Shown here piece after piece: positions 10,114-59,502 of a stretch of DNA of 64,000 bases (its first letter is position 1; every line of letters begins with the position of its first letter). The stretch is from a virus. The notes under the pieces are model-generated. The model saw only the letters and a list, made by a program, of their open reading frames with translations, was not told the DNA's origin and searched no databases. The position numbers and the translations under genes were made by a program. The DNA is taken from the IMG/VR virus record IMGVR_UViG_3300005573_000085. One strand, 5' to 3'.

Positions 10114-10228
10114 CCGGAGGGATTTCTTCGGCTCAAGGGTTACCATCCTGACGAGTGTCACGGATTGGTAGCCCTATTTTCACTATGGTTACATTACCGA
10201 AGCCGGAAGGGATCACCCTCCGAGCTTC
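10112..10228 (+). ncRNA. candidate structured leader upstream of ssb (three hairpins with alternative pairing)
   Basis: Hairpins 10112-10133, 10136-10175 and 10199-10228; first and third can alternatively pair with each other over about 19 bp. Confidence 0.4.
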
Positions 10229-10247
10229 CACATTTGAAAGGATGAAT

Positions 10248-10676
10248 ATGATAGTCGTATCTTTGTTTGGTAAAATCTACAACGTGGAGACCAAGACTTC
10301 AAAGGATGGCAAGCCGTTCGTCAGCGCCACTATTCGGGATTCCGTAAGAAACGCTCAAGGCGAATGGGAGAGCCGCTTTATTCGTTTGACCGCGTATGGG
10401 GTTATGGCGGACCGTCTCAACGAGTGCCCGAGAGGCACGGTTGCATGCGTTGAGGGGGTTATGGAGCCTTCGATATATGTCGACAAGGGCGGAACGCCCA
10501 GACTTTCACTGGACGTGAGAGTGGACAGAATTCGCAAGGCCCCGTCCTATCCGGATTCAACCGATGCGGCCGACACATCCTCCGGTGATAACATCCATGC
10601 CGGATTGGATGATCCGAATGAAATCGCGCCTCCGATCGCAAGCGCTAATCCGTTCGCAAGAAGCGGATTGGCCTGA
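10248..10676 (+). CDS. ssb: single-stranded DNA-binding protein
   Basis: OB-fold pattern G.I...E.K.SK.GKP...GEWESRFI.LTAYG..AD....G..V.VEG; acidic/Pro tail with NPF. Confidence 0.85.
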   Translation: MIVVSLFGKIYNVETKTSKDGKPFVSATIRDSVRNAQGEWESRFIRLTAYGVMADRLNECPRGTVACVEGVMEPSIYVDKGGTPRLSLDVRVDRIRKAPSYPDSTDAADTSSGDNIHAGLDDPNEIAPPIASANPFARSGLA

Positions 10677-17904: not shown

Positions 17905-17933
17905 AAAGGAACTCTCTCAGGAGTTCCTTTTTT
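17905..17933 (+). terminator. intrinsic terminator
   Basis: AAAGGAACTC-TCTCAG-GAGTTCCTTT-TTT. Confidence 0.85.
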
Positions 17934-17955
17934 GTCGGTCGGAAAGGATATTCAT

Positions 17956-18573
17956 ATGGAAAATAGTTTCAAGGAAGCGTGGCTGGCCTTGGACCGGGAC
18001 ATAAGAAATTGCAGCAAGTGCCCGCTGAGAAATCTGCAGCAGGCTCCCCCGGTCCCTGGCGAAGGCGACATGAACTCAGCGCTTCTGATAGTGGGGGAGG
18101 CTTTGGGCGGACAGGAGGTGGCGCAAGGCAGACCGTTCGTGGGCAAGGCGGGAATTGCGTTTCGGGAGATACTTGAAGAGGCCGGCATACCCCCGCACTT
18201 CGCGTACATTACAAACACGGTTCTGTGCAGGCCCACTGAAATAGGCCCCACCGGAAAGTCCAGAAACAGGCCTCCGGATGAGAATGAAATCAAGGCCTGC
18301 AAGCCGTGGCTTGACGCCAGAATAAAATTGATGAAACCGAAGTTCATAATTTGCGTGGGGGCCGTTGCCGCGCGGGCTTTGATATCCCCTTCGTTCTCAA
18401 TTACAAGGGAGCGAGGCTTGCTTACAAGATCCATTTATGACACGCAAGCGATAGCCACCCTCCATCCGGCCTATCTGGTGAGAAAGTCCGGGGAGGAGTA
18501 CAAAGAGGTTCGCAGTCAGATGGTGAGTGATTTAATAATAGCCAGAAAGGCATGTTTGTCTTTATTGAGGTGA
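17956..18573 (+). CDS. uracil-DNA glycosylase family 4
   Basis: CSKCPL, VPGEG, IVGEA.G, GRPFVGKAG, YITNTVLCRP, C..WL, LHPA. Confidence 0.92.
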   Translation: MENSFKEAWLALDRDIRNCSKCPLRNLQQAPPVPGEGDMNSALLIVGEALGGQEVAQGRPFVGKAGIAFREILEEAGIPPHFAYITNTVLCRPTEIGPTGKSRNRPPDENEIKACKPWLDARIKLMKPKFIICVGAVAARALISPSFSITRERGLLTRSIYDTQAIATLHPAYLVRKSGEEYKEVRSQMVSDLIIARKACLSLLR

Positions 18574-33938: not shown

Positions 33939-35072
33939 ATGATGAGAGGAGACTTGGTTGTGGACCATAAAAATCTTATAATCGCTAAACGTGAAAAAAA
34001 CGATGAATTTTATACCAGGTATTATGACGTTGAAAAGGAAGTTGGAGCTTATCTAGATTATGATCCTAATACGTTTAGGGATAAAACCGTATACTGTAAT
34101 TGCGATGATCCCTATGAAAGCAACTTCTTTAAATACTTCGTATTAAATTTCAGGAAACTAGGACTGAAGCGACTTATTACGACAAGCTATGATTCCTCGC
34201 CCATAGCCAATACCGAGCTTGTATTGTCCCCAGGCGATGAGTCAAAAGCTGGCGCCAATAAGTTTGTTATAAACGAAGTCGGAGACTTTGACAACAAGGG
34301 AGAGTTCAATTTGAAGAGTGTCGCCACGCAATTGCAAGCTAATAGGAATAACGAATGGAGCGCTTTAAAAGGGAACGGGGATTTCAGAAGTCCCGAGTGC
34401 GTGGAACTATTAATGCAGTCGGATATTGTGGTGACAAACCCACCTTTCAGTTTGTTCAGGGAGTTCGTAAAACAACTTTTCGATTACGACAAGAAGTTCC
34501 TGATTATAGGTAACCTGAACGCGGTTACATACAAGGAAGTGTTTCCGTTAATAAAGGGCAATAGGATGTGGCTGGGCGTAAATAATGAGGCTAAAATTTT
34601 TCAAATACCTGAGTACTATATCCAAACCAGTACTTTTAAAGGACAAGATGAAAAAAAATATGCCAAAGTAAGTACTGCGGTTTGGTTTACAAATCTTGAA
34701 CATGGGCGCCACCATAAGCCACTACAACTAATGACTATGGCGGATAACCTTAGGTATAGCAGGCATAAGGATATTAAGGAAAAAGGTTACCAGAAGTATG
34801 ATAATTACAACGCCATTGAAGTGTCGCACACTAACGCCATTCCAAGTGACTATACTGGAGTTATGGGCGTGCCAATTAGTTTCTTATATAAGTATTGTCC
34901 GGAACAATTTGAGATTATCGGAATGGCGGAAGATAACGGTAAAGGTTTTTCTGGTGGGATTTGGGACGGTAAAAATCCGCATTGCGTTATAAATGGACAG
35001 AATAAATTTAAGCGAATTTTTATTAAAGGTAAGGAGAAAAATGAAAACAGTACTGAAAACCTACACGGTTAA
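33939..35072 (+). CDS. adenine-specific DNA methyltransferase, EcoRI-methylase family
   Basis: [50 protein letters not shown]. Confidence 0.9.
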
Positions 35073-36210
35073 GGAGATTTGCGAGGGGTTTGAGTACAAC
35101 GAACTAGAGGAGAAAGGGCTTTTCGGACTTTCCGGAAAGCTAACAATTCAACCCGAGTATCAGCGTAATTACATTTACGCATCTGACGGAGGAAAAAAGG
35201 AGGCTGCCGTCATAGACTCCGTGCTTAAAGGCTATCCTCTCGGACTGTTTTACTTTAACAAAGTGTCCGATGATAAGCTTGAAGTGTTGGACGGACAGCA
35301 GCGTATTACGAGTCTTGGGCGATTTATTATTAAGGATAGGTTTGCCATCCTGGATCGGGATCGAAACCCGCAGTATTTTAGTGCTCTGCCAATGGATAAA
35401 AAGGCTAAAATTTTGGAGACAAAGTTGCTCGTCTACATATGCGAGGGCGAGGAAACCGAGATCAGAGAATGGTTCAAGACTATCAATATCGCGGGCGTTC
35501 CTTTGAACGAGCAGGAATTGCTTAATGCGGTGTATTCCGGACCTTTTGTCACCCTGGCCAAGGCCGAATTCAGCAATAGCCGTAGTCCCAATATTAAAAA
35601 ATGGAGCCTCTATCTAAAAGGAAGCGCCAACAGGCAGGACTTTTTGGAGCGCGCATTGGACTGGGTGAGCAAAGGAAACATCGGGGAATACATGAGTTCT
35701 CATCGACATAGTAACAATATCGATGAGCTGAAGACCTATTTTAATAGCGTAATTGACTGGGCGTCCAGCGTATTCAGGGATGAGAGGGATGAAATGCGCG
35801 GATTGCCCTGGGCGGATCTTTATGAAAGGTACCATGGCAAACCTTACGATCCCAAGGAAGTGTCGGATAAAGTAAGGGATCTTTACGAGGACACTTGTGT
35901 CAGGAATCGCAGAGGAATTTTCGAGTATATCCTGGGTGGCTGCAGCGATCCCCGGTTACTCGATATTAGATTTTTCGAGGACGCAACCAGGAAGAGCGCC
36001 TATAAGATGCAAACCGACAAGGCGCGAGTAGAAGGTGAATCGAATTGCCCGCTTTGCGCTATTGGAGACAACTCCAATAAGACCAGGATTTGGAAGTTTG
36101 AAGAAATGGAGGCTGACCATGTCTCGGCATGGAGCAAGGGCGGGACGAGCGACATCGGTAACTGTCAGATGCTATGCAGAACTCATAATCGCGCCAAGGG
36201 CAATCGATAA
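35041..36210 (+). CDS. GmrSD-like DUF262 protein with C-terminal HNH nuclease
   Basis: QPEYQRNY and LDGQQRITS (DUF262); CPLC...EADHV.AWS.GG.S...NCQMLC.THNR.K (HNH). Confidence 0.9.
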
Positions 36211-36242: not shown

Positions 36243-38504
36243 ATGCCAGCCAAGTTCGGGATTACGGAGTTGGGCACCTATTCCCTTATTGACAGCTCCC
36301 AGGAGCTGGCCAGGATTTGCCGGGAGACCATAAGGGACAGGTCCCTGGTCTCCTTTGACATCGAAACAACGGGAACGAATCCCCTTATGGATTCCATCCT
36401 TATGATTTCATTTGCAAGGTGTCCAAGTCACGCCTATGTGTTCATCCCCGGTGAAATAAACATCGCACCGTTTCTCGATGTTCTCGTAACATGCGACATC
36501 ATGAACCATTACATAAAGTTTGACTACGAGTTCATGAAGGCGAAATACGGAATTGACACCAACATATATTGGGACACTCAGGTCACCCACTCGATAGCGA
36601 TATCGGGAATGGGAATGGACCTGGGAGGAAACGGGCTGGGCAATCTCATTAAAAGGTACTTCGGAATTACTTTGAACAAGGCGCTTAGAAAGAACTTCGG
36701 ACATGACGGGGAGTTCACGGACGAGGATATAAGATACTCGGCCATGGATTCCCTGGCGGTTCAAAGATTGTATCCGGTCACCCGCAAGATGCTCAAGGAT
36801 TCGGAGTGCGAGCCCGTCTGGGAGACCATAGAGAAGCCGTTAATCAAGGTTATTTCCAACATGGAGCTTGACGGCATTAATGTCGACTTCGATTCGATAC
36901 TCGCCCTGAGGGACAAGTATCAGGAGAAGGTGAACGAGCTGGAGAAGGAGATAGCGGACCTGACCCGGCACAAGACAACCGTGAAGTCCAGATGCGTTTG
37001 TTCGAGCCGGCCGCGAGGCACCGTGCTCTGCGATGTTTGCTCGGGAAAGAAGAAGGTCATATGCCCCGTCTGCAACGGCAAAAGGAAATCCTCCTGCGAG
37101 AATTGCGGGGGAACGGGCAGATTGATATGCCCTAAATGCAACGGGGTCGGCAGGGTGACCTGCGAAATATGCAAGGGCGAGGGGTACGTTGAAAACGAGG
37201 TTATGGTTTCGGTTAACCCCGGCTCCCCGGCTCAGGTCATAGAATACCTGCGCAACGAGGGAATAAAAATTCCAATGAAGGAGAGAAAGAGCGGAGAGAG
37301 CAGCGAAAGCGTGGATGAGAAGAATCTGGAAAAGATACATCACCCGCTGGCGAAGCTTCTTATCGAGTACAGGGGATACGCCAAGGCCCTGTCCGCCTAT
37401 CTCATACCCTGGAGCACTCCGTGCGATGTGGACCCCGAAGGCAGGTACAACATGACCACCAAATGCATTCATGCCGAAATCACTCAGTCGGATACATCCA
37501 CCGGGAGAACCACCATGAAGCAGCCTAATCTGCAGGCGGTGCCCCGCGAGCTGGAGTTCAGGCATCTGTTCAAGGCGCCCGAGGGGTACAAGATGATTAC
37601 GTGCGATTTTTCGCAGATAGAGCTGCGCGTGATTGCCGAGATATCGGGCGATCAGGCTATGAGGGAGATCTTCGTTAAAAGGGCGAAAATATATGATGAG
37701 CTGAATGCAAAGCTTGCCGAGATAGGCGAGCTTTATTACACCCCTGAAATAGGGGAGATGAGGCCCGATATCAAGGAGCTTCACACCCTTATGGAAAGAG
37801 ACAACGACATTCACAGCCAGACGGCCATTTTAATATTCAAGCTGGATCCCGCCAAAATAGACTGGGACAGCCATGAGTGGAAGAATAAAAGAGCGTCCAG
37901 CAAGTGCGTTTCGTTTGGAATTCCCTACGGGTCCGGGGCGAGGACGGTCGCCATGCGGTCGGACGGAGCCATGACCGAGAAGGAGGCGGAGAAGACCATA
38001 GAAAACTACTTCGCCACCTTCCCCAAGGTGAAACGGTACATAGAGGACTCGAAGAGAAATTACGTAAGGAATACGTGCGATGAGCTAGCCGAGGACATCG
38101 GGGTCGAAAAAGGGAGAGTGTGCTGGTCCGCATCCCCCGGTGGGAGACGAAGATTTTATCTTCTGCCCCCAAGAACCAATACATATGAGGGCGAGGTTGA
38201 GAGTAGAAAAATACACGCATCAATTCAAAGAAAGGCTATAAATCAGCCTATCCAAGGGTGCAGCGCTGATATAACCAAGCTGGCCATGGTGACGTTGGCC
38301 AACACGTTCTCCGAACCAAGATGGGAGAACAAGGTGAAGCTCAGGCTGATGGTTCATGACGAGCTTGTGACGAGCTGCCCCGCTGAGTGGGCGAAGGAGG
38401 TGGCCGCCATACAGATGAAGGTTATGACGGATACGTCAGCGCGATACCTTAAATCGGTGCCTTCCGAGGTGTCGTGCGTGATAAGCGACTGTTGGGAGAA
38501 ATGA
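36243..38504 (+). CDS. polA: family A DNA polymerase (3'-5' exonuclease + polymerase) with a zinc-finger insertion in the thumb
   Basis: Exo FDIETTG, KFD, Y.AMD; motif A DFSQIELRV, motif B K..SFG..YG, motif C VHDEL; 12-Cys insert at aa 251-310. Confidence 0.93.
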   Translation: MPAKFGITELGTYSLIDSSQELARICRETIRDRSLVSFDIETTGTNPLMDSILMISFARCPSHAYVFIPGEINIAPFLDVLVTCDIMNHYIKFDYEFMKAKYGIDTNIYWDTQVTHSIAISGMGMDLGGNGLGNLIKRYFGITLNKALRKNFGHDGEFTDEDIRYSAMDSLAVQRLYPVTRKMLKDSECEPVWETIEKPLIKVISNMELDGINVDFDSILALRDKYQEKVNELEKEIADLTRHKTTVKSRCVCSSRPRGTVLCDVCSGKKKVICPVCNGKRKSSCENCGGTGRLICPKCNGVGRVTCEICKGEGYVENEVMVSVNPGSPAQVIEYLRNEGIKIPMKERKSGESSESVDEKNLEKIHHPLAKLLIEYRGYAKALSAYLIPWSTPCDVDPEGRYNMTTKCIHAEITQSDTSTGRTTMKQPNLQAVPRELEFRHLFKAPEGYKMITCDFSQIELRVIAEISGDQAMREIFVKRAKIYDELNAKLAEIGELYYTPEIGEMRPDIKELHTLMERDNDIHSQTAILIFKLDPAKIDWDSHEWKNKRASSKCVSFGIPYGSGARTVAMRSDGAMTEKEAEKTIENYFATFPKVKRYIEDSKRNYVRNTCDELAEDIGVEKGRVCWSASPGGRRRFYLLPPRTNTYEGEVESRKIHASIQRKAINQPIQGCSADITKLAMVTLANTFSEPRWENKVKLRLMVHDELVTSCPAEWAKEVAAIQMKVMTDTSARYLKSVPSEVSCVISDCWEK

Positions 38505-38505
38505 A

Positions 38506-39042
38506 GTGAAAATAATACATGAAATGTCACTGGTCTCGTTCAATATGATTAAGTACGAGACTGAACGCGAAGCCAAGGGAAGGCTTCATAAGATAATTCT
38601 TGTGCATTGCAATTTGGAGGAGGAGCTCATATATTTCACGAGGGACGAGGACTTCCCTGCGGATGAAGTGATGAGCTTTCTGGCTGCGCTCACCGGAGGG
38701 GCGAGGGTGGGCAACACCATCGTTAATCTTACGCGAATACAGGCTATTTACATTGACACTCAGGACTACGAGAAGTGGGAGTTCAAGGTGAAGTTTCCGC
38801 ATTATGACAATCGTTTCACCCTGATCGATGCGAAAATGCCGATTGATAGGAAGCTGAAGGCGCTGTTTGAAATAATGAGGCTCATGCCCGAGGCGCTGCG
38901 CAACGAGAGCAAGGAGAGCGATGTCGTTATTGATATGCCGGACATAGTCAGAAGGGCCCGGGATATGGCGAATGAAAAGCGCAAGGCCGAGGAGACCGAT
39001 GACGCCTGCGACCCACGGGTGATTTTCAACGTGTCGGTGTAA
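38506..39042 (+). CDS. hypothetical protein
   Basis: 178 aa directly after polA. Confidence 0.6.
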   Translation: MKIIHEMSLVSFNMIKYETEREAKGRLHKIILVHCNLEEELIYFTRDEDFPADEVMSFLAALTGGARVGNTIVNLTRIQAIYIDTQDYEKWEFKVKFPHYDNRFTLIDAKMPIDRKLKALFEIMRLMPEALRNESKESDVVIDMPDIVRRARDMANEKRKAEETDDACDPRVIFNVSV

Positions 39043-49524: not shown

Positions 49525-50218
49525 TAACACCGGGAGGAACCCTGATATGAGCTGGATGATGGATTATGACACATTTGTTGAATATTTGAAAACCGAGGAG
49601 GGCATAAGCGTGGTCTCCGATGTCGTGTGGAACTCCTCGCCAAGGGACTACGAATGGAACCCTCCCAGGATTGAATCTTCAAGGTGCACCAGAACCCTCG
49701 AAGAGGTCGGGATAATAACCAATCAGTTTCAGTATTGCCACGGGGCGCTGGAGGACTTTAGGAGAAGGTTCGCGCTATTCCAGGCTGAAAGAGGACTAAA
49801 TATGGATATAAGGATAAAGTCCGTGGATGAAATCCCCGTTAGGATAAAGGACAGGGCCGTGAAGGAGGACCTGTCTCAAAAGGATCTGGATGATCTAATG
49901 TTCGATGTCATAGAAAAACTTAGAATTCCGGAAATCCCTGCTCTCTTTCTCAACCTGTCCTTTCCCATGCACTTTCCTCTTGACAGAACCCTGAAAAGCG
50001 TAATCTCATCCTTTCCCACGCTATACGAGTATTGTCTGTATCCCGATGATGTCGAGGCCAGCTGCATGAGGAACCAAGTCTCTTCAAACACCGCAAGGCA
50101 CCTTAAGAAGGCGGCTGAGATGGTGGGGGTGGTTCTTGTAAGATTAAAGGAGGAGGAAAGAGAGGCGGATAAATGGTTTCAGGAATGGAGCTCATCGAAT
50201 CCCTGGCAAGAAGGCTAG
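49517..50218 (+). CDS. hypothetical protein
   Basis: 233 aa. Confidence 0.65.
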   Translation: MNNNTGRNPDMSWMMDYDTFVEYLKTEEGISVVSDVVWNSSPRDYEWNPPRIESSRCTRTLEEVGIITNQFQYCHGALEDFRRRFALFQAERGLNMDIRIKSVDEIPVRIKDRAVKEDLSQKDLDDLMFDVIEKLRIPEIPALFLNLSFPMHFPLDRTLKSVISSFPTLYEYCLYPDDVEASCMRNQVSSNTARHLKKAAEMVGVVLVRLKEEEREADKWFQEWSSSNPWQEG

Positions 50219-51237
50219 GTCCGTATGAAAGAGAATCCGCGTCAAAGTACAAGTTTAATTGTCCCGTTTGCGGGGGCGCTCAAACCCTGCACATAAACCC
50301 TAAAAAAGATGGTGGTCCTGGCATATGCATAGGATGCGGCTTAAGAACAAATTCTGTCGCAATCCTCCATCTTAAGGGAAAGGACGCTAAAATAGCCGTG
50401 CGCGAAAAGCCTAAAGTCGATATCGATTGGGAGGACGTATCGCGTATTTGTCAGTTCCTAGTGGACAACGCATCCCTGCGCCCGGTCCATGAGAAATGGC
50501 TGTCGAGCAGGGGAATAAGGAGCAACCTCTCCTCACGACCTAGGATAAACTCCATGCTGGTCAGATCAAGCGACAAGGCTTTTCATCTGTTGCTGGATAA
50601 TTTTCCCGTTGAAAAACTGGTCAGGTGCGGGTTCTGCATAATGAGAGATGGCGAAACTCCAAGGGCACCTGGCTTTCTTACGCCAAACAGAATACTAATA
50701 CCTTACTTTGACGTAAACGCCAAGCCCGTGTATATGAGAAGCCGATACGCAGGCTCCGCTGGAACGCTGAGGTATCTGGCCCCTCCCAATCTGCCGGGCT
50801 CCGGATTCTCATGGGGGTGGGAGACCATACTCCCGGGATCCGAGTATGTTATCATAACCGAGGGGGAGTTAAAAGCCCAGGCCGCCAAGCAGTTGGGCTT
50901 TCCATGCGTGGCCCTTCCAGGCATGCATGCCGGCTATGTCAGCATGGCCGAATCCTGCGGAGCCAAAGGCGTAAAAAAGGCGTATGTCATATTCGATACG
51001 GAAACCGATACATACTCCAATGGCGAGCTTAAGATGCAGGGGGTGAGAGCGTCTGCGGAGGCTCTGCAAAATACGTTACTTGAGTATGGAATCAAGTCCG
51101 TACTCTGCGAGTTGCCCGCGCTTAACAAGGGCAAGACCGATCTGGACGGGTTCATACTGACACGAAGGTCCGAATCAATCAGGGACCTGATTATGTTGAT
51201 GATATCATCCGACAGGAGTCCCGTTGGCCCACCCTGA
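50185..51237 (+). CDS. DNA primase (Zn finger + DUF3854-type TOPRIM)
   Basis: CPVC...CIGC; RILIPY; ITEGELKA, VALPG, VIFD.E, DLDGF. Confidence 0.82.
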   Translation: MELIESLARRLGPYERESASKYKFNCPVCGGAQTLHINPKKDGGPGICIGCGLRTNSVAILHLKGKDAKIAVREKPKVDIDWEDVSRICQFLVDNASLRPVHEKWLSSRGIRSNLSSRPRINSMLVRSSDKAFHLLLDNFPVEKLVRCGFCIMRDGETPRAPGFLTPNRILIPYFDVNAKPVYMRSRYAGSAGTLRYLAPPNLPGSGFSWGWETILPGSEYVIITEGELKAQAAKQLGFPCVALPGMHAGYVSMAESCGAKGVKKAYVIFDTETDTYSNGELKMQGVRASAEALQNTLLEYGIKSVLCELPALNKGKTDLDGFILTRRSESIRDLIMLMISSDRSPVGPP

Positions 51238-56289: not shown

Positions 56290-58272
56290 TCACACCCCTC
56301 CGTAGATGATATCCAAATAGGTCTCCTGGTTCTCCGCCTCCTTCAGTCTGGCCTGGGAGGGCCACTGCTGAAAGACAATGATGCTGTTGAAATCGGACAC
56401 CTTCGACTTCAGGAAGTGAGCCTCGACTATCGGAAGGTCAACTTTCTCCCCGTCCGGCTTTTTACCGGTCCAGAAAACCTTGGCCTTTCCCTTGTTCAGT
56501 TTCATGTCGTTGTGTATTCCTATGACGACCTTCGCTGAGTAAGCCAGGAAGTTATTTCCCTTAAGGTCCTCGAGGGTCGGACGCCTGCCCCCGTTTTTTC
56601 TAAGGTGGGTCGAGGCTATGAGCACGGAATCGGTTCTAACTATGAGCCTGTTCAGCTCCTTGGTCACCGATTCGGACCTGACGTAAGGGTCATCGCTTTT
56701 AACCATCGCCTCTATGTCATTAAGGGAGTCGAGTATGACCACGACTTTTGCCGAAGGGTTTTCCCTTCTTATCTCCTCGGTCTTCGATATGATGAATTTA
56801 ATATCGGATTGCGATCCGTTGCCATTCGACCCGCTTTCCCACATGAGAAGTCTGCCGCTGTCGACCCAGGACTTGAATTCATTGCAGGCTTTTACAAATC
56901 TGTCTATCTTGTCGGGGTCAATCACGTTATTCATGAAGTCAACGGTATTCATGTCAAGGTGAGCCATTGCCGCGATATACTGCGTTATTCTTTTGCTCTT
57001 TGGGTCATCCATCGTAAAGTCAACGACTATCGCGTCCCTGTTTCTCGCCAGGATGTTCCTGGATAGAAAGGTGAGAACCTGACTGTTATGAACTACGAAG
57101 TCATTGGCTAAAAATGTGTGGTCCTCCTCGACCTCAAGGCATCTGCACGGGACAAGCCCTTCGGGATTAATGCTTGTAATTTTATCGGCTATGAATTCAC
57201 CGGGGAAACACCCCCTGCGGGGATAGTGACTCGCTATCGCAGCCCGCTTTTTCCCGGTGAGAGGTATGACCTCCGCGAACCTGGCTATGTCCTCCGGGTC
57301 GGAGATTGAAAGCCTCCATGAAGGATGCCCTCTCCTTTTCAAATAGGAGCGATGCTTCGAACTCAAAACGGAGTTAATTCCCAACCGAAGAAGCAGCCTC
57401 TGAATTCCCTCCAGCGCGCCTCTCTCCGCGGAGTAAAACTTAAGAACGATTGTTCGCCCGATGTCAAGCACCGTTCCGTTGCATGCGAAGAACGAGGCCA
57501 GGAAATGAGCTATCCCGCGGTTGTCTAGCCTGAACACCCAGTCGGGCGCCCTTCTTGAATCGGAAAGGCTTTCGACTATTCCGCTGTCAATCAACCAGTC
57601 CCGGATTCCTTCGGATACGTAAACCCTTCGGGTCCTCTCGACCGCCAAACCTTTAAACCCTTTGCGCCCGATAAGATTTAGTATGTCGGCAGCGCCCTCC
57701 CTATCGGGATACGCTATGGTGACGTTGAACGACCTGTCATTCATCGTCACATGTCCATCTCCTATGAAGTACCCCGCAAGTCTCGCATCCTCCGGCCCGA
57801 ACCTCACGTCATTCGGTCCTGCGGAAACATTGCGGACCAGTGCCAACTTGTCGCTCACCGTCAGATCCTTCGCGTTTTTCCAACCACCGGGGGTGAGGAA
57901 CGGGTGGTCGAGCGCGGCAACAACCTCTCTTCCGGTCCGCGTCCTTATTCTCAGGCACTCCAGCTTTCCCTGCGTGTAAACGTTAAGAACCCTCCGCGCC
58001 CTTCCCCTGTGGGTTATCACCTCGTCCCCGATTTTAATCTCCCTGAGCGGCTTATAGGAGCCATCGCCCATTAAAATTGGAGTGCTCTCGTCAACGGGCT
58101 TTCCGAAATTGGCGACTCCGCCCACCAGAAGCGACATGCCGCCCTTCATTCCCTTGAGGGCGTAATTCATACGATCGCTTCCCCAGTCAAGATAATAGGC
58201 CTTTTCCTTCTTGCATTCAGCCAGCCATCTCTCGAAATCCTGCGCGTTACTGATTATATCCTCTGTGTTCAT
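56290..58272 (-). CDS. dnaB: DnaB-like replicative helicase (C-terminal RecA-like domain only) interrupted by an intein
   Basis: Walker A GVANFGK|S split by the intein; VVILDSL, STHLRK, LKG...L.Y.AKVV, K.K. Confidence 0.88.
   Translation of the reverse strand: MNTEDIISNAQDFERWLAECKKEKAYYLDWGSDRMNYALKGMKGGMSLLVGGVANFGKPVDESTPILMGDGSYKPLREIKIGDEVITHRGRARRVLNVYTQGKLECLRIRTRTGREVVAALDHPFLTPGGWKNAKDLTVSDKLALVRNVSAGPNDVRFGPEDARLAGYFIGDGHVTMNDRSFNVTIAYPDREGAADILNLIGRKGFKGLAVERTRRVYVSEGIRDWLIDSGIVESLSDSRRAPDWVFRLDNRGIAHFLASFFACNGTVLDIGRTIVLKFYSAERGALEGIQRLLLRLGINSVLSSKHRSYLKRRGHPSWRLSISDPEDIARFAEVIPLTGKKRAAIASHYPRRGCFPGEFIADKITSINPEGLVPCRCLEVEEDHTFLANDFVVHNSQVLTFLSRNILARNRDAIVVDFTMDDPKSKRITQYIAAMAHLDMNTVDFMNNVIDPDKIDRFVKACNEFKSWVDSGRLLMWESGSNGNGSQSDIKFIISKTEEIRRENPSAKVVVILDSLNDIEAMVKSDDPYVRSESVTKELNRLIVRTDSVLIASTHLRKNGGRRPTLEDLKGNNFLAYSAKVVIGIHNDMKLNKGKAKVFWTGKKPDGEKVDLPIVEAHFLKSKVSDFNSIIVFQQWPSQARLKEAENQETYLDIIYGGV
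57085..58098 (-). mobile_element. 338-aa intein with LAGLIDADG homing endonuclease, starting with Pro
   Basis: Block A PVDESTPIL, block B A.LDHPF, block C LAGYFIGDG, block E FLASFFACNG, block F PCRCLEV, block G VVHN/S. Confidence 0.9.
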
Positions 58273-58782: not shown

Positions 58783-59502
58783 CTACTCCACGTCCTCGTC
58801 ACCGTCATCCTCCGAAATGGACAGTGCGTTATCCTTGTCGGCTTGCGCCATTGGTATCCACTCGGACTCCAGAACCCAGGGGTCGGAACCGCGATTTCTA
58901 TCGGTGGACCCTATTCTCCAAAGATCTATGGCCTGTAAAATCACATCGAGCTCGATTCCGGATGACAGCAAATACCTAAGTATTCCGATAAGCTTTTTCC
59001 TATCGACATGTTCGGGCTCAAGCTCGCTTACGTAGTAGTCAGCCAGGTTCTCGAGGGTGAATGACTTAACCCTTCGCACTCCGCCCGAAGAGATAACCGC
59101 CCCCGTGTCCTCGTCATATTCGGGCGGGACTACGATTTTCAACGCGTGATGCGTGTATTTTTCAGTGTCCGACAGAAGGTTGACGTTGTTGGAGTCCGAG
59201 GTGGGAGGGATGGGAGGGATGGCGTCTGAAAATCGGTCGCACGAAATTTTGCTGTCTCTCACCTGCAGCAGCCTGTCCCTTATGGTTTGAATCGTCCATC
59301 CCCGGGCGAGCCTGTCTTCGAGGATCGCCATCGAAGACCTCCAGTGGGGGTTTGTCTCATAGCCGTCCTTGAATCCCTCGGAGCGGTCCGACACCGCGTA
59401 GTTCTTCGCTATGTGTCTGAAGAAATAGTCAAGGAGCAGCTCCTTGTCAGTCAGTTTGGTCTTCGCCATCCGGCTCGCCTCCTTCGAAATCATTGCCGTC
59501 AT
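58783..59502 (-). CDS. hypothetical protein in the helicase operon
   Basis: 239 aa, acidic C-terminus. Confidence 0.65.
   Translation of the reverse strand: MTAMISKEASRMAKTKLTDKELLLDYFFRHIAKNYAVSDRSEGFKDGYETNPHWRSSMAILEDRLARGWTIQTIRDRLLQVRDSKISCDRFSDAIPPIPPTSDSNNVNLLSDTEKYTHHALKIVVPPEYDEDTGAVISSGGVRRVKSFTLENLADYYVSELEPEHVDRKKLIGILRYLLSSGIELDVILQAIDLWRIGSTDRNRGSDPWVLESEWIPMAQADKDNALSISEDDGDEDVE

Follow-up and report, generated by a model that had tools for sequence, protein, structure and literature searches.

A cysteine-rich thumb-tip insert in a phage DNA polymerase

The viral record IMGVR_UViG_3300005573_000085 of IMG/VR, analysed here as one stretch of 64,000 nucleotides (the window), encodes a family A DNA polymerase (PolA) that carries an insert of about 80 residues with twelve cysteines in the tip of its thumb. 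The insert is located at the junction between thumb helices H and H1, which is also the place of the thioredoxin-binding domain (TBD) in gp5, the polymerase of phage T7. Judged by profile searches and structure models, the insert is a cysteine-rich (CR-type) CxxCxGxG array of the DnaJ/BSD2/SSUH2-like kind, and comparison with its closest relative indicates that its positive charge is under selection. Thumb-tip inserts themselves are already known in PolA, namely the T7 TBD, the phiKMV extension, the thumb hairpin of the plant organellar polymerase (POP) and the AID of Pol gamma (PMC10201439); what appears to be new, from the sequence and the models, is a zinc-finger-type array at this site. 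The classification of PolA into 19 clusters contains no mention of zinc or cysteine (PMC10201439), a review of phage polymerases mentions zinc for primases only, and full-text literature searches turned up no report of a PolA thumb with a zinc finger. In family A polymerases, processivity and replisome contacts are gained at the thumb tip (T7 TBD, phiKMV, Pol gamma, POP), and a compact zinc-finger array there would represent a new design for an element of this kind, independent of any cofactor.

Position of the insert

In the HMMER alignment to Klentaq, residues 156-250 of the window PolA correspond to residues 104-195 of the chain, and the correspondence is resumed from residue 345 of the query and residue 212 of the chain. 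Since the approximately 95 query residues between these points (250-345) face 17 residues of Taq (chain 195-212), the window PolA has about 80 extra residues. In the multiple alignment (MAFFT), LEKEIADLT pairs with the end of helix H and the query segment VNPGSPAQVIEYL pairs with bacterial FNxxSxxQL and with T7 FNPSSRDHIQKKL; the VNPGS motif is the counterpart of FNL(S/N)S in E. coli and Taq and of FNPSS in T7. The gap between the end of helix H and the H1 motif, which amounts to about five residues in bacterial Pol I, is filled by residues 241-322 in the window PolA, and in the same alignment the thioredoxin-binding segment of T7 gp5 (approximately residues 260-333, with FNPSS at 334) falls into the same gap. 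According to the published classification, the TBD lies before helix H1 and the insert of the phiKMV type after it (PMC10201439). The thumb-tip position of the insert holds because the alignments agree with this placement of the TBD. An initial annotation of this DNA, made from the sequence alone, had proposed an insert of about 80 residues between LEKEIADLT and the NPGS motif, at the thioredoxin-binding position of T7, and both the Taq and the multiple alignments bear this out.

Sequence, class and predicted fold of the array

The cysteines of the array are residues 251, 253, 263, 266, 274, 277, 285, 288, 296, 299, 307 and 310, exactly the twelve in-frame cysteines that the initial annotation had listed for 36960-37215 (residues 240-325). 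They form six pairs, in the order CVC, CDVC, CPVC, CENC, CPKC and CEIC, the first of which is CxC; the five CxxC pairs start at residues 263, 274, 285, 296 and 307 and thus follow an exact period of 11 residues. Nearly half of the cysteines of the protein (12 of 26) are packed into these 60 residues, for which the hypergeometric probability, corrected for window positions, is about 6e-5. The strict motif CxxCxGxG is present in repeats 4-6 only (CENCGGTG, CPKCNGVG and CEICKGEG), and repeats 2-3 have CxxCxG only.

A profile was built from the inserts of the window PolA (P0001) and of its closest relative (P0002) and was compared with 1.84 billion representative proteins. Matches were obtained to 2638 proteins at E<=1e-3, of which 180 reached E<=1e-10; the best E was 5e-26. 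The top 30 matches, tallied by motif and in three cases read whole, are tandem CxxCxGxG arrays, often with the 11-residue period, and the Pfam families BSD2_CRD and/or DnaJ_CXXCXGXG were found in 8 of the 10 matches scanned. In an alignment of 50 near-full-length segments all six cysteine pairs are in register with CxxCxGxG arrays. The number of repeats varies widely among such arrays of unrelated proteins. No polymerase was present among the top 150 matches of the profile; one match, P0153 (752 residues, repeat match at 262-328), has the repeats at a similar position, but it is not a polymerase and the similarity was set aside as a coincidence.

Since the full-length AlphaFold 2 (AF2) model left the array poorly defined, the insert was modelled alone on the 50-sequence alignment. 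The best of these models has a mean predicted local distance difference test score (pLDDT) of 79 and consists of a long two-stranded stalk (residues 241-250 and 315-324) and four short strands arranged symmetrically about model residue 46. It superposes on BSD2 (6ekb) with Z 5.1 and a root mean square deviation of 4.2 over 61/62 residues (model residues 10-81); other structural matches are the DnaJ cysteine-rich domain and anti-TRAP. Against SSUH2/CR-type domain clusters of the AlphaFold database (AFDB) the template modelling score (TM) by query reaches 0.72, with a best E of 2.6e-6. The insert is most likely a hairpin on a two-stranded stalk with three Zn(Cys)4 sites, and the model favours a nested pairing of repeats 1+6, 2+5 and 3+4 as the most likely arrangement. 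The third zinc site would then stand in place of the long tip loop of BSD2.

Charge and conservation

The insert contains 14 Lys/Arg and 6 Asp/Glu residues, which gives a net charge of +8 and an isoelectric point (pI) of 9.0, compared to pI 5.9 for the rest of the window PolA. Two basic patches lie within the array, K269-K271 and K280-R281-K282. Between P0001 and P0002 the identity of the insert is 62%, and all 12 cysteines are kept. Thirteen of the 14 basic residues are identical in the two proteins and the fourteenth is changed from R to K, whereas among the other positions that are neither Cys nor Gly only 12 of 40 are identical (Fisher p = 7e-5). In addition, a GKKK loop is retained in relatives that have four cysteines and are about 50% identical overall. 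Because the basic residues are far better conserved than the others, and because this loop persists in the shorter forms, the positive charge of the insert is, judged from these substitutions, under selection beyond that on the zinc scaffold alone.

Distribution and origin of the array

Word-based searches of 5.8 billion proteins yielded five close relatives of the window PolA, P0002 to P0006. P0002 is a metagenomic protein, 70% identical, which is encoded on an independent contig (L002) and has the same 12 cysteines. P0003, P0004 and P0005 (about 50% identical) have a single CxxC-x9-CxxC knuckle with four cysteines on the same stalk, and the knuckle sequence, CPxCKNRGKKKLxCxxCxGxGK, is closest to repeats 3-4 of the longer form. 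P0006 is without the insert. In the public data searched, the 12-Cys form was thus found in just two proteins, P0001 and P0002. Region-restricted word searches recovered the 12-Cys form only from these two and the 4-Cys form only from P0004 and P0003, with nothing further. This rarity, together with the literature searches, agrees with the earlier impression that the architecture was undescribed, and no other PolA examined has the array.

No clustered CxxC was found in the other 115 best PolA homologs, and the PolAs of 80 distant metagenomic loci (<=31% identity) have no cysteine cluster in the polymerase; the CxxC pairs seen at those loci belong to neighbouring Clp-like genes. A scan of IMG/VR for relatives found none. 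Among the matches listed, the closest isolated phage polymerase that covers most of the query is about 24% identical and none reaches 60%. When 50,697 phage records were searched with the insert by tblastn, no match lay within a polymerase and three were in huge phages. The one that was inspected (L005, 2011-3420, from the uncultured huge phage LR745206.1 of 635 kb) lies in a 469-residue non-polymerase protein with an acidic C-terminal array of approximately ten CxxCxGxG repeats, which shows that arrays of the CR type are present in further phage proteins, here with the opposite charge.

Bacterial Pol I was used as the root of a maximum-likelihood tree, in which the 4-Cys protein P0004 branches first and the 12-Cys proteins form a derived sister pair with support of 100/100. 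P0006 groups with the 4-Cys proteins P0003 and P0005 (86/93), a placement that is uncertain because the sequence is fragmentary and its branch long; this protein may have lost the insert. Since the insert site is occupied by a 4-Cys knuckle in P0003, P0004 and P0005, the sequences compared are best explained by an in-place expansion of a predicted single-zinc knuckle to the 12-Cys arm. The initial annotation had described the array as a domain grafted into the thumb. An extra array is indeed present at this site, but the word overstates the case in view of the homologous knuckle in the relatives.

Comparison with known thumb-tip elements

The POP thumb hairpin and the AID of Pol gamma are extra elements at or near the PolA thumb, as is the window insert, and the two have been connected with processivity or partner binding (PMC10201439); they differ in topology, have neither cysteines nor metal and belong to unrelated lineages. 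The phiKMV-like PolA (cluster 13 of PMC10201439) also has a long structured extension of the thumb tip, modelled at 60-70 A, for which contact with nascent double-stranded DNA has been suggested. However, that extension follows H1 and comprises about 100 residues of beta strands without a reported metal site, whereas the window insert precedes H1 and is a zinc-finger-type array.

The closest parallel in position is the TBD of T7-like PolA (cluster 5 of PMC10201439), which shares the H/H1 site, a length of about 75 residues, the basic character and the setting in a replicative, proofreading phage PolA. On the other hand, there is no relationship in sequence or fold: no residue pattern beyond the flanks is shared, the insert profile retrieves only CxxCxGxG arrays, and the polymerase core of the window is not T7-like. 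The TBD, a flexible loop, becomes ordered through host thioredoxin, whereas the window insert, as a predicted cysteine-rich zinc array, should fold by itself.

The parallel in chemistry is provided by the cysteine-rich domains of DnaJ, BSD2 and SSUH2 (PF00684, PF25436), which have the CxxCxGxG repeats and a hairpin fold with zinc sites built from opposite limbs, as is predicted here. In contrast to the four knuckles, two zinc ions and long tip loop of DnaJ/BSD2, the window insert has six knuckles, three predicted zinc sites and a strict 11-residue period. Furthermore, it starts with CxC, lacks the second Gly in repeats 2-3 and sits in a polymerase thumb, not in a chaperone.

Proposed role and alternative explanations

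The PolA thumb tip touches the duplex behind the primer end, and its removal in Klenow lowers DNA affinity and processivity. In T7, processivity is increased by the TBD together with thioredoxin, and the basic loops of the TBD are docking points for the acidic C-terminal tails of the helicase and the single-stranded DNA-binding protein (SSB). Because a rigid arm with conserved basic residues would sit at the very site that is known for DNA hold (Klenow) and partner docking (T7), we propose by analogy that the insert is a rigid basic arm that provides an electrostatic hold on duplex DNA, docks replisome partners or does both, independently of any host cofactor; the chance that this is correct appears to be about even. 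The thumb tip would be extended at the H/H1 junction by a beta stalk bearing a CR-type zinc-finger hairpin, in which six cysteine pairs would hold three zinc ions in a nested arrangement and thereby make the arm rigid, elongated and strongly positive. Such an arm could extend over the duplex as it leaves the active site, or it could capture acidic tails of replisome partners, and in either case the added electrostatic hold would make the enzyme processive and couple it to the replisome with no need for a host cofactor. Stiffness, which in T7 comes from thioredoxin, would here come from the zinc ions. That PolA thumb-tip inserts are positioned to interact with nascent double-stranded DNA has been noted before (PMC10201439).

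A more far-reaching version of this proposal is put forward tentatively, as somewhat less probable than its opposite: the arm may be a self-contained, zinc-stiffened module for processivity and replisome coupling that does alone what T7 needs host thioredoxin for, with a length tuned by nature from one zinc to three, and it could be transplantable to other family A polymerases at H/H1. If true, it would represent a third, convergent route to PolA processivity and the first that is based on metal. Should the arm alone raise processivity, it would be a small graftable module for engineering enzymes of the Klenow, Bst or Taq type, and CR-type (DnaJ-like) fingers, known from chaperones, would have a further use in DNA replication. 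Because the clade offers a natural series of 0, 4 and 12 cysteines, the effect of arm length can be tested directly.

Several observations weigh against this interpretation. The DnaJ-type label given in the initial annotation is upheld by the profile search, by the Pfam content of the matches and by the fold comparison, but beside the confinement of the strict motif to repeats 4-6, the Pfam scores of the insert itself stay under the curated gathering thresholds (BSD2_CRD 16.5 bits, threshold 27; DnaJ_CXXCXGXG 13.5, threshold 32.7), with GRXCR1-2_C at 14.5. The array has a pLDDT below 50 in the full-length AF2 model, the remaining four of the five insert-only models scored just 52-64, and the nested zinc topology is based on the pattern of secondary structure and on superpositions of modest Z-score. 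Characterised CR-type fingers (DnaJ, BSD2, anti-TRAP) bind proteins, not DNA. Finally, since P0006, a member of the clade, has no insert at all, the insert is dispensable for the fold and perhaps for replication.

The protein-binding habit of this fold class favours, in particular, a purely protein-docking module that tethers or recruits the polymerase at the fork through a part of the phage replisome (SSB, helicase, primase or helicase loader) or through a host chaperone or other factor. The basic loops of the T7 TBD, which bind acidic helicase and SSB tails from the same site, point in the same direction, and acidic tails or linkers are present in three proteins of the window: the 239-residue protein at 58786-59502, the UvsX-like recombinase and the SSB candidate at 10155-10676. 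However, the C-terminus of the window helicase is not acidic, and the conserved positive charge suits DNA contact equally well. A complex prediction of residues 205-345 and three zinc ions with residues 115-173 of the SSB candidate gave a score of 0.00, which speaks neither for nor against binding. Docking as the sole role is therefore possible but rather unlikely; it overlaps with the proposed basic arm and does not exclude it.

It is less probable, and on the whole unlikely, that the insert is a tolerated embellishment, that is, a self-folding zinc repeat that has grown at a permissive surface loop and is retained solely to avoid harmful misfolding, with no specific role in replication. Very different inserts are tolerated at the thumb tip across PolA families (PMC10201439), the clade itself shows states of 0, 4 and 12 cysteines with P0006 having no insert, and CxxCxGxG arrays with a very variable number of repeats are common in unrelated proteins. 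A mere embellishment does not readily account for the selective conservation of charge at 62% identity (13 of 14 basic positions against 12 of 40 others), nor for the GKKK loop that is kept across forms about 50% identical. Moreover, no 33-bp tandem repeat was found in the array at the DNA level, and in the absence of a recent repeat the array should be old and maintained.

A redox or metal sensor, in which oxidation of the cysteines or loss of zinc unfolds the arm and switches the polymerase according to the redox state of the host, is very improbable. Twelve closely spaced thiols are present, redox switching is known for zinc-thiolate centres (Hsp33), and thiol-disulfide activity is reported for DnaJ-type fingers; however, the cysteine pattern matches a structural Zn(Cys)4 scaffold, and a motif search of the window found no thioredoxin-type CxxC open reading frame (ORF; thioredoxin or glutaredoxin) that could be a redox partner. 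An origin from an intein or another mobile element is ruled out by the size of the insert (76 residues, far below that of an intein), by its ends (...TTVKSR and ...NEVMVS, without intein termini, as had been stated from the start) and by the lack of any Hint/intein Pfam match in the window PolA, despite the inteins elsewhere in polA of P0003 and P0006 and in the window helicase gene, since the real inteins of the relatives occupy other sites and a shorter homologous knuckle is present at this one in three further proteins; an assembly or annotation artefact can be dismissed with it, as the insert is in frame in a single ORF and all its cysteines recur on the independent contig L002.

The polymerase

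The window PolA is encoded by a single unbroken reading frame (table 1) and matches DNA_pol_A (PF00476; E 1e-70, 239.1 bits against a curated cut-off of 34.3) and DNA_pol_A_exo1 (PF01612; E 3.7e-14, 53.3 bits against 23.6) in Pfam. Its best solved sequence relatives in a PDB sequence search are Taq, Klenow and Bst Pol I, and outside its own clade the nearest relatives of the polymerase core are bacterial Pol I proteins with about 30% identity. In an alignment of 20 PolA sequences, the exonuclease DEDDy residues D39, E41, D94, Y165 and D169 are invariant columns, and the residues of polymerase motifs A (D455), B (R550, K554, F558, Y562 and G563) and C (H705, D706 and E707) are invariant or nearly so; the catalytic motif residues also align to Taq. 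The full-length AF2 model, built on this alignment, has a mean pLDDT of 87 and a predicted template modelling score (pTM) of 0.84. Foldseek comparison with Klenow, Bst and Taq gave TM 0.81-0.85 by target and E about 1e-31, which corresponds to a Klenow-like right-hand fold. Because the catalytic residues are conserved and the fold is Klenow-like, the enzyme looks active both as polymerase and as proofreading exonuclease, and by sequence and model it is the replicative family A DNA polymerase of the phage, with both sites intact.

Table 1. Features of polA and of the extended thumb, with window coordinates
Feature	Coordinates	Strand	Basis
polA, family A DNA polymerase with N-terminal 3'-5' exonuclease and without 5' nuclease domain, 753 aa	36243..38504	+	ORF, Pfam, PDB sequence matches, AF2 model
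3'-5' exonuclease domain, aa 14-184	36282..36794	+	Pfam PF01612; D39, E41, D94, Y165 and D169 conserved
Thumb helix H, aa 216-240, end LEKEIADLT	36888..36962	+	DSSP of AF2 model; aligns to Taq LEAEVFRLAGHP and T7 ELLRKLTE
Ascending beta strand of predicted stalk, aa 241-250	36963..36992	+	strand 243-250 in full-length model; strand 4-13 in insert-only model
Cys array, aa 251-310, six Cys pairs, three predicted Zn(Cys)4 sites	36993..37172	+	sequence, profile matches, fold matches
Descending beta strand of predicted stalk, aa 315-324	37185..37214	+	strand 315-322 in full-length model; strand 78-87 in insert-only model
VNPGS motif and helix H1, aa 324-338	37212..37256	+	alignments; helix 329-338 in model
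Second clade-specific insert, aa 486-517, helical, between motif A and DIH motif	37698..37793	+	unaligned to Taq; model helices

The second insert (about 32 residues) is kept in P0002, P0003, P0004 and P0006, is missing in Taq and is modelled as helices with pLDDT >90. A third segment that is extra with respect to Taq covers approximately residues 603-650. Inteins occur at conserved motifs of some relatives: one follows TGR in P0006 and contains an HNH domain, and P0003 carries a pair, at motif B and ahead of the SADITK motif; the window PolA has none. P0006 (793 residues, on a contig of 30.9 kb) stops soon after the motif B sequence CLSFGIP, which may mark a split in the gene or an interruption of it.

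Genomic context

The window is phage-like, with nearly all genes up to about 51 kb on one strand. Its genes include those for a ribonucleotide reductase, the UvsX-like recombinase, sigma factors, a ligase, a primase (50173-51237), a polynucleotide kinase and the SSB candidate. A DnaB-like helicase is encoded at 56290-58272 (-) and has an intein with LAGLIDADG domains. PHROG scans of approximately 50 ORFs of the window recognised no sliding clamp and gave only a weak clamp-loader match on an ATPase.

The gene order around polA is kept in the contigs carrying P0002 and P0004. Directly upstream of polA, at 33939-36210, are a methyltransferase-like gene and a DUF262-like/HNH gene with a GC content of 0.427, compared to about 0.50-0.53. 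Both genes are missing in the P0002 contig, where a 259-residue gene, a 105-residue gene and polA stand in this order, and the region looks like an inserted cassette. A 178-residue ORF at 38506-39042 (+) begins 2 nt past the polA stop codon and has no Pfam or PHROG match; in the P0002 and P0004 contigs it is not downstream of polA, and a glycosyltransferase-like gene is located directly there instead.

The SSB candidate (+) matches phrog_44 (E 8.6e-7) and has, beside the acidic linker, a tail ending in ...ANPFARSGLA. The gene of the 239-residue protein (-) adjoins the helicase gene; the protein has the strongly acidic tail SEDDGDEDVE, and an Atlas search gave weak leads to helicase-loader/DnaD-type proteins (score 0.90 at rank 74, structural TM all <0.5). 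A 213-residue ORF at 17932-18573 (+) weakly matches positions 479-624 of the 1445 of the phage DNA polymerase phrog_17 (E 6.4e-6) and may encode a stand-alone exonuclease-like protein.

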